Assembly (NCBI RefSeq): GCF_003334255.1
Contig: NZ_QOWU01000017.1
Reading direction: 5' to 3' (one strand)
Length of the DNA: 64,000 nt
Source of the DNA: Escherichia coli
Lineage (GTDB): Bacteria > Pseudomonadota > Gammaproteobacteria > Enterobacterales > Enterobacteriaceae
Shown here: positions 4,338-5,159 of the stretch, in pieces
How positions within the stretch are numbered: the first letter of the stretch is position 1
Layout: the number at the start of each line of letters is the position of its first letter
Program-made: the position numbers and the translations under genes
Notes under the pieces: generated by a model
Seen by the model: only the letters and a program-made list of their open reading frames with translations
Told to the model about the DNA's origin: nothing
Database searches by the model: none

Positions 4338-5159
4338 ATGATGCACAGGTTGAATCTCAATGGCTATGAACCCGACCGACACCATGAAGCCGCGGTCGCA
4401 TTTTGTATTCACGCCGGAACGGATGAGTTAACCAGTCCTGTACATCAGCACCGCAAAGGACAGCTGATACTGGCGCTACATGGTGCAATTACCTGTACGG
4501 TGGAAAATGCTTTGTGGATGGTGCCGCCACAATATGCGGTTTGGATACCGGGCGGGGTGGAACATAGCAATCAAGTAACAGCTAATGCTGAACTCTGTTT
4601 TCTGTTTATCGAACCCAGCGCAGTGACAATGCCGACAACATGTTGCACATTGAAAATATCGCCCTTATGCCGGGAATTAATTTTAACCCTGGCAAACAGG
4701 ACGACGACTCAGCGTGCTGAGCCAATGACCCGCAGATTAACTCAGGTCCTGTTTGATGAACTCCCTCAGCAGCCACAACAACAGCTGCACCTGCCCGTTT
4801 CTTCTCATCCTAAAATCCGCACGATGGTGGAGATGATGGCGAAAGGGCCTGTCGAGTGGGGGGCATTGGGGCAATGGGCTGGCTTTTTTGCGATGAGTGA
4901 ACGCAATCTTGCCCGACTGATAGTAAAAGAGACGGGGTTGAGTTTTCGCCAGTGGCGTCAGCAGTTACAGCTGATTATGGCGCTTCAGGGATTAGTGAAA
5001 GGCGATACTGTACAGAAAGTTGCTCATACGCTGGGGTATGATTCAACAACGGCCTTTATTACTATGTTTAAGAAAGGCCTGGGGCAAACGCCAGGCCGAT
5101 ATATTGCGAGATTAACTACTGTTTCCCCACAATCAGCGAAACCAGACCCGCGGCAATAA
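4338..5159 (+). CDS. yeaM: AraC-family transcriptional regulator (273 aa); recalled as NimR
   Basis: ORF track; C-terminal AraC-type HTH region; divergent from yeaN. Confidence 0.85.

Follow-up and report, generated by a model that had tools for sequence, protein, structure and literature searches.

The convergent genes nimR and yeaL share their last 44 bp within the 64,000-nt stretch of Escherichia coli chromosomal DNA analyzed here (hereafter, the window), and our sequence comparisons, together with published RNA data, indicated that this arrangement is probably a neutral by-product of gene packing, combined with a yeaL terminator written into nimR by synonymous codon choice and having little regulatory effect. 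The overlap itself is already known, being annotated in reference genomes and catalogued among the convergent overlaps of E. coli, and the transcript-level overlap of yeaL-nimR has likewise been published. The one new detail is a selectively conserved terminator-like hairpin within the motif of nimR that codes for the NimR HTH.

Two genuine genes with a shared 3′ end

The gene nimR, the current name of yeaM, encodes a 273-amino-acid AraC-family regulator of nimR/nimT on the + strand (4338..5159; ORF list, RefSeq, and Pfam), and yeaL encodes a 148-amino-acid DUF441 inner-membrane protein on the − strand (5116..5562; ORF list, RefSeq, and comparison of 80 loci). The original prediction that the two genes converge and have their last 44 bp in common (5116..5159, both strands) was confirmed by the ORF list, the sequence, and the RefSeq annotations of strain G1/2 and K-12. 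On the yeaL side, the shared stretch comprises the last 14 sense codons and the stop TAG (5116-5118, − strand); on the nimR side, it comprises most of codon 260, codons 261-273, and the stop TAA (5157-5159). Reading of the sequence placed either stop codon inside the reading frame of the opposite-strand partner, and the coordinates set codon position 3 of yeaL opposite codon position 2 of nimR.

In RefSeq strain G1/2, the locus is 100% identical to the window, with identical nimR and yeaL ends. The 44-bp overlap is also annotated in K-12 MG1655 (RefSeq; yeaL, 1874352..1874798, +; nimR, 1874755..1875576, −), which differs from the window by one base across nimR-yeaL, and it recurs in three further strains with identity down to 97.2%, so that all E. 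coli strains sampled have it. Among 5,426 complete genomes of the species, 5,407 carry the nimR-yeaL locus. E. coli ZH142 carries an IS1-associated deletion extending from nimR via yeaL, yoaI, and yeaK into dgcJ.

Both members of the pair pass as genuine protein-coding genes, as judged from their domains, the transcription factor literature, and the substitution pattern. NimR contains the Pfam domains AraC_binding/cupin (residues 22-96) and HTH_18 (residues 180-257), the latter being the DNA-binding domain (4875..5108, +), and it has been characterized experimentally as a single-target transcription factor acting on the nimR/nimT spacer (PMC5934670). HTH_18 ends 8 nt short of the yeaL stop codon, and the overlap therefore encodes no domain. 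YeaL is 81-100% identical across 80 Enterobacteriaceae loci, with variation mostly at third codon positions. The possibility that one of the ORFs was miscalled was rejected, since the 3′ ends of ORFs are fixed by stop codons, which leaves start-codon miscalls unable to abolish the overlap, and both proteins are conserved or characterized.

Chance length of the overlap and a freely evolving NimR tail

The 14-codon run-on of nimR is within chance expectation, and the overlap is not in excess of chance. A codon is a stop with a probability of 0.037 at the local base composition, which gives a probability of 0.59 that 14 codons are stop-free; with uniform codons, this probability is 0.51. Genome-wide, 75 convergent overlapping gene pairs, made by stop-codon movement, have been counted in E. 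coli (Huvet & Stumpf 2014, PMC4161906). Spacers at the 11 convergent junctions of the window measure 58, 21, −44, 0, 47, 92, 116, −35, 8, −41, and 257 bp, three of the 11 pairs thus overlapping.

The comparison set consisted of 80 Enterobacteriaceae loci from one scan for YeaL relatives, 60 of which have an adjacent convergent nimR, and overlap lengths were obtained by translating nimR to its first in-frame stop. Among these 60 loci, the distance from the nimR start to yeaL is mostly fixed, whereas the position of the nimR stop shifts. The overlap measures 17 bp in 27 of the 60 loci (Klebsiella, Enterobacter, Raoultella, Kluyvera, Leclercia, and the divergent 'E. coli' E69); the 44-bp class comprises the window and 13 loci from E. 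coli and most Citrobacter. The remaining values are 45, 21, 20, 6, 0, −1, −4, and −5 bp, apart from four loci in which a true spacer separates the genes; tightly packed loci therefore range from 45 to −5 bp, with 17 and 44 bp being the commonest values. The TAA stop of nimR in the 17-bp class arises from the Phe-Ile codons of yeaL (TTT-ATY), and the TAA or TGA stop of the 44-bp class arises from its Leu-Ile codons (CTT-ATT or CTC-ATT), the TAA in the window being made by CTT-ATT. A synonymous CTG at this yeaL Leu was computed to shift the next nimR stop to 5376, for an overlap of 263 bp.

The conserved part of NimR (...GRY[IL]AxL) finishes at residue 259 in all genera, and codon 260 spans the yeaL stop. 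Sequence comparison revealed that residues 260-273, encoded antisense to yeaL (5115..5156, +), form a non-conserved C-terminal tail: 11 of 14 tail positions vary when the 14 genomes of the 44-bp class are compared, and the tail length is not constant between genera. In the same 14 genomes, the last 14 residues of YeaL are invariant, with third positions variable at 10 of 14 codons. Since position 2 of nimR faces position 3 of yeaL, every such third-position change alters the NimR tail, and this free evolution of the tail implies that the overlap itself is not under selection. Third-position entropy is somewhat lower in the overlap (0.64) than in the rest of yeaL (0.84-1.06), which could reflect mild extra constraint or an effect of the way the group was defined. 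With a length that changes between genera, a variable tail, and an extent in the range of chance, the overlap does not appear to be selectively maintained. As part of the overall explanation favored here, the coding overlap is probably a by-product of stop-codon position and tight packing rather than a selected feature.

Several relatives have lost or rearranged the nimR side of the locus. The convergent neighbor of yeaL in Kosakonia and Cedecea is not nimR but an unrelated ABC-permease gene, which runs 20-21 bp into yeaL. This ABC-transporter permease gene (4427..5140 in locus L037 and 4428..5123 in locus L079, both −, against yeaL at 4001..4447, +; overlaps of 21 and 20 bp, respectively) sits between yeaL and nimR, a different partner with a like run-on into yeaL. 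The nimRT genes are missing in Escherichia albertii, Escherichia whittamii, and the cryptic Escherichia clades, in which yeaL is intact; in these loci without nimR-nimT, yeaO lies approximately 82-98 bp after yeaL. Escherichia sp. MOD1-EC7003 has a nimR remnant with an internal deletion. In Citrobacter werkmanii, a TGA at nimR codon 258 yields a NimR of 257 amino acids and leaves a 4-bp gap before yeaL, indicating that the protein tolerates the loss of everything past the HTH domain.

A conserved terminator-like hairpin inside nimR

A consensus terminator scan of the − strand identified a GC-rich hairpin, GGCCUGG-CGUUUGCC-CCAGGCC (5076..5097), beginning 19 nt downstream of the yeaL stop and having its stem within nimR codons 247-254. 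Together with folding and synonymous-site conservation, the scan marks it as the probable stem of a yeaL intrinsic terminator. The stem has 7 bp, including 6 GC pairs, and is followed by UUUCUU, in keeping with the combination of a GC-rich hairpin and a U-tract past the stop codon that is expected of an intrinsic terminator. The T-tract after the hairpin (5066..5075, −) reads UUUCUUAAAC in E. coli and UUUUUUGAAC in Citrobacter and corresponds to the Lys-Lys codons 245-246 of nimR; the scan and the density of nimR-antisense reads predict the 3′ end of yeaL mRNA here. The whole element, hairpin plus T-tract (5097..5066), falls within nimR codons 245-254, which code for an AraC-family motif.

Predicted folding energies range from −13 (the E. 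coli value) to −20 kcal/mol in Escherichia, Citrobacter, and Salmonella, as against approximately −4 to −8 kcal/mol in most other genera. In an alignment pairing test, 98% of the stem cells were paired. Three of the seven stem pairs are dictated by the amino acids, and the other four hinge on the codons GGC (G247), CTG (L248), CCA (P252), and GGC (G253). Across 20 Escherichia and Citrobacter genomes, third-position entropy at these four codons is 0-0.29, and the loop codons 249-251 are saturated (0.99-1.86). Among the 70 invariant four-fold-degenerate codons of nimR, five have an entropy of ≤0.29, and four of these five are the stem codons, an outcome that random draws would give with P about 5e-6. 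This synonymous-site conservation is absent in 25 genomes of other genera; two Salmonella genomes have the hairpin too. When tested for covariation, the hairpin proved to be conserved but without compensatory changes, because the stem does not vary. The E. coli U-tract is broken by a C (UUUCUU), and the MFE structure contains a competing fold. An Rfam search near the locus returned no known RNA family, and the searchable portions of the supplementary tables of Term-seq (Adams 2021, PMC7815308) and TRS (PMC10687069) list no 3′ end for yeaL or nimR, both of which are weakly expressed.

The most economical reading of this pattern is that the conserved hairpin is probably the intrinsic terminator of yeaL. 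With a likely terminator at this site within nimR, the two transcripts would probably overlap by more than the 44 nt of shared coding sequence, the minimum being about 90 nt. The predicted, selectively conserved terminator of yeaL would also lie inside the transcription unit of the partner gene, one of the criteria by which excludons are recognized. Klebsiella, Enterobacter, and Kluyvera have a degraded form of the hairpin, and yeaL must therefore terminate differently in these genera. Terminator scans at the two other overlapping pairs of the window, ynjH/nudG and ves/cho, found no consensus terminators, which limits the embedded-terminator detail to yeaL.

Transcript overlap without evident cross-regulation

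It had been proposed that the full-length transcripts of the two genes are antisense to each other at their 3′ ends, and published RNA-seq upholds this. ExcludonFinder (NAR 2025, PMC12288877), which calls convergent 'excludons' by their RNA-seq coverage, reported 165 of them in at least 50% of 58 MG1655 transcriptomes, and its Table 1 names yeaL-nimR as well as cho-ves, nudG-ynjH, yeaK-yoaI, ynjE-ynjF, and yeaO-yoaF. The terminator is embedded in the neighbor in 146 of these 165 convergent excludons (PMC12288877), and an earlier survey found 3′-end overlap in 276 of 370 convergent operons, with a mean of 286 nt (Conway et al. 2014, PMC4161252). In the accessible part of Table S1c of Huang et al. 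(2020, PMC7373196), wild-type total RNA contains 17.64 sense and 0.84 antisense reads per million (RPM) for yeaM and 4.54 sense and 2.94 antisense RPM for yeaL. After length normalization, these low counts from a single sample suggest that yeaL transcripts reach approximately 50-83 nt into nimR, in agreement with the position of the hairpin. In the same single low-count sample, yeaL antisense reads amount to approximately 30% of nimR sense density, which points to nimR transcripts continuing across yeaL. Overlapping transcription of the kind expected of a convergent excludon is thus present both in the published list and as antisense reads on both genes.

The terminator scan of the + strand found none for nimR, and the fold of 5100-5300 is no better than that of shuffles (z = 0.06). 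Past the nimR stop lies a C-rich stretch (5160..5360, +; C/G 1.31), which, judging from its composition, the lack of a terminator, and the reads, may be the zone in which nimR transcripts run antisense into yeaL. These 200 nt are possibly compatible with a Rho-dependent ending of nimR.

The further proposal, that the overlap sets up transcriptional interference or RNase III-mediated cross-regulation, is speculative and finds no support in the published rnc-mutant and dsRNA data. In the accessible part of the tables of PMC7373196, sense RNA of yeaL does not rise in rnc mutants (4.5, 4.6, and 3.5 RPM in the wild type and the two mutants; single samples with low counts), and that of yeaM does not rise but rather drops (17.6, 11.4, and 6.9 RPM; likewise single samples with low counts). 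The p19-captured dsRNA in the same source is ordinary, at 1.7-14 RPM for yeaL and 6-33 RPM for yeaM, as compared with at least 100 RPM in 13.5% of genes, and the names yeaL and yeaM occur nowhere else in the accessible Table S1 text (PMC7373196). In general, 3′ convergent overlaps yield 37.9-fold less dsRNA than 5′ overlaps (PMC7373196). The RNA-seq figures from this source are single samples from rich medium, which leaves room for regulation under nimR-inducing conditions. The weak expression of both genes would make polymerase collisions rare.

Other convergent pairs and neighboring features of the window

The same architecture had been claimed for ynjH/nudG and ves/cho, and both overlaps were found. 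The genes ynjH (37779..38051, +) and nudG (38017..38424, −) share 35 bp of coding sequence (38017..38051, both strands), and ves (ending at 55551, +) and cho (55511..56398, −) share 41 bp (55511..55551, both strands); both pairs are listed as excludons (PMC12288877). Altogether, six of the 11 convergent pairs of the window are published excludons, and all six either overlap or have a spacer of ≤21 bp.

One of these six, yoaI (+) and yeaK (−) at 5732..6340, is convergent with a 0-bp spacer (5836/5837). In the searchable portion of the Term-seq tables, a 3′ end at K-12 position 1874225 (+) is labeled 'antisense to yoaI' (PMC7815308), and in the accessible total RNA counts, antisense reads on yoaI exceed sense reads (13.4 versus 2.35 RPM). 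From these two observations, the 3′ UTR of yeaK appears to span the whole of the small gene yoaI. At the beginning of the window (1..325), the end of an IS421 transposase gene adjoins a 5′-truncated yeaR pseudogene (77..325), an IS insertion specific to the strain background. Two 43-nt matches to the Rfam sRNA family ES036 (CssrF), both above the gathering score, occur on the − strand, one between cho and nadE (56506..56548) and the other just downstream of the katE 3′ end (63652..63694).

Discussion

Our findings suggest a scenario in which two real convergent genes would have been packed without a spacer, functional NimR (AraC-type HTH) finishing at the yeaL stop codon. The nimR frame would then continue over the antisense of the last 14 yeaL codons up to the first in-frame stop. 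The resulting 44-bp overlap would be neutral and of the standard origin of convergent overlaps, with YeaL constrained and the NimR tail passively following. Since no intergenic space is available, the yeaL terminator, a 7-bp GC hairpin with a U-tract, would be placed in nimR codons 245-254 by synonymous choice. Such an embedded terminator would be present at least in Escherichia, Citrobacter, and Salmonella, where the hairpin would end yeaL transcription. The nimR transcript, apparently lacking an intrinsic terminator of its own, would read partway into the antisense of yeaL and may end by Rho or by run-off. The two mRNAs would be complementary over about 90 nt or more, placing the pair among the catalogued convergent excludons, and the arrangement would have little regulatory effect at the low expression of both genes.

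Alternatively, the pair may act as a functional convergent excludon, in which the complementary 3′ regions allow expression of either nimR (hence nimT) or yeaL but not both, because RNA polymerases collide or RNase III cleaves the duplex. The documented transcript overlap fits this idea, as does the partner-embedded terminator, which the ExcludonFinder authors took as a mark of a bona fide excludon (PMC12288877); moreover, the convergent layout of nimR and yeaL is retained in many Enterobacteriaceae genera, and the accessible counts include some p19-captured dsRNA on both genes. In the same accessible data, however, neither mRNA goes up in rnc-14 or rnc-38, with nimR going down, and the dsRNA level is ordinary in a setting where 3′ overlaps fall far below 5′ overlaps (PMC7373196). 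Expression of both genes is weak, neither the overlap length nor the terminator hairpin is conserved outside one clade, and nimRT is dispensable, being missing in E. albertii and cryptic Escherichia that keep yeaL intact. We therefore consider a functional excludon unlikely. A narrower version, in which the hairpin in the most conserved DNA-binding motif of NimR and the read-through of nimR into yeaL constitute a clade-specific regulatory coupling, is quite unlikely. If true, induction of nimR, the nitroimidazole-resistance regulator, would lower YeaL, or yeaL transcription would lower nimR, with the effect seen in Escherichia, Citrobacter, and Salmonella and not in Klebsiella or Enterobacter.

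Two other readings concern the hairpin itself. It might serve both genes as a bidirectional or collision-type terminator (Ju et al. 2019; Wang et al.) and fix the 3′ ends of the two transcripts, given that its stem is palindromic and forms in both RNAs, that the stem has an A-tract before it on the nimR strand and a U-tract after it on the yeaL strand, and that convergent E. coli genes have been described as commonly having such elements between them. Elements of this type carry tracts on both strands and lie downstream of both stops. Here, a U-tract is lacking on the nimR strand (E. coli, GAUAUAUUG; Citrobacter, GUUAUCUG), and the nimR stop comes 60 nt after the hairpin, so that termination at the hairpin would produce non-stop mRNAs; in the accessible read counts, the density of reads antisense to yeaL also indicates that nimR transcripts pass the hairpin. 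A terminator shared by both genes is accordingly very unlikely. The synonymous conservation at nimR codons 247-253 might instead serve nimR, through mRNA stability, translational pausing, or a protein-binding DNA palindrome, because the constraint is real and does not by itself tell which strand is served; the searchable Term-seq and TRS tables, moreover, list no yeaL 3′ end at the hairpin. This reading is highly improbable given that a T-tract directly follows the hairpin on the yeaL strand only, in the canonical position just past the stop codon, and that the accessible nimR-antisense read density fits termination at the hairpin.

As a discovery, the overlap is minor, and the useful result is a clear negative: its extent is set by the position of a stop codon and is not selected. 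The hairpin illustrates how tightly packed convergent genes can carry the signals of a neighbor within their own coding sequence. Synonymous mutations in the stem provide a clean handle for testing excludon function at a weakly expressed pair.

Among known systems, dnaQ-rnh is the classic convergent overlap, and the excludon concept reportedly goes back to Sesto et al. in 2013. Like overlapping bidirectional terminators (Ju, Li & Liu 2019; Wang et al., bioRxiv 10.1101/2022.10.23.513370), the nimR hairpin is a stem-loop between or within a convergent pair; unlike them, it lacks a U-tract on the nimR strand and lies upstream of the nimR stop, and it cannot be the normal terminator of nimR. The pair resembles convergent excludons (PMC12288877) in having neighboring opposite-strand genes, overlapping 3′ transcription, and a putative terminator in the unit of the neighbor, but an excludon is defined by a reciprocal expression of its genes that interference or RNase III brings about, and the accessible rnc-mutant data show no effect for yeaL-nimR. 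With a GC-rich stem, a short loop, and a U-tract 19 nt past the stop, the hairpin is like the intrinsic (Rho-independent) terminators with 7-9 bp stems that are embedded in convergent coding sequences; the putative yeaL terminator differs in lying wholly in a conserved AraC-family motif by synonymous choice and in being confined to the Escherichia/Citrobacter/Salmonella clade. The closest likeness is to convergent (tail-to-tail) overlapping pairs, which are real opposite-strand genes with mutual stops, overlaps of tens of base pairs with a length set by the first stop, and one unconstrained tail. Nothing essential distinguishes nimR/yeaL from the 75 such pairs of E. coli (Huvet & Stumpf 2014), and it is one of that set.
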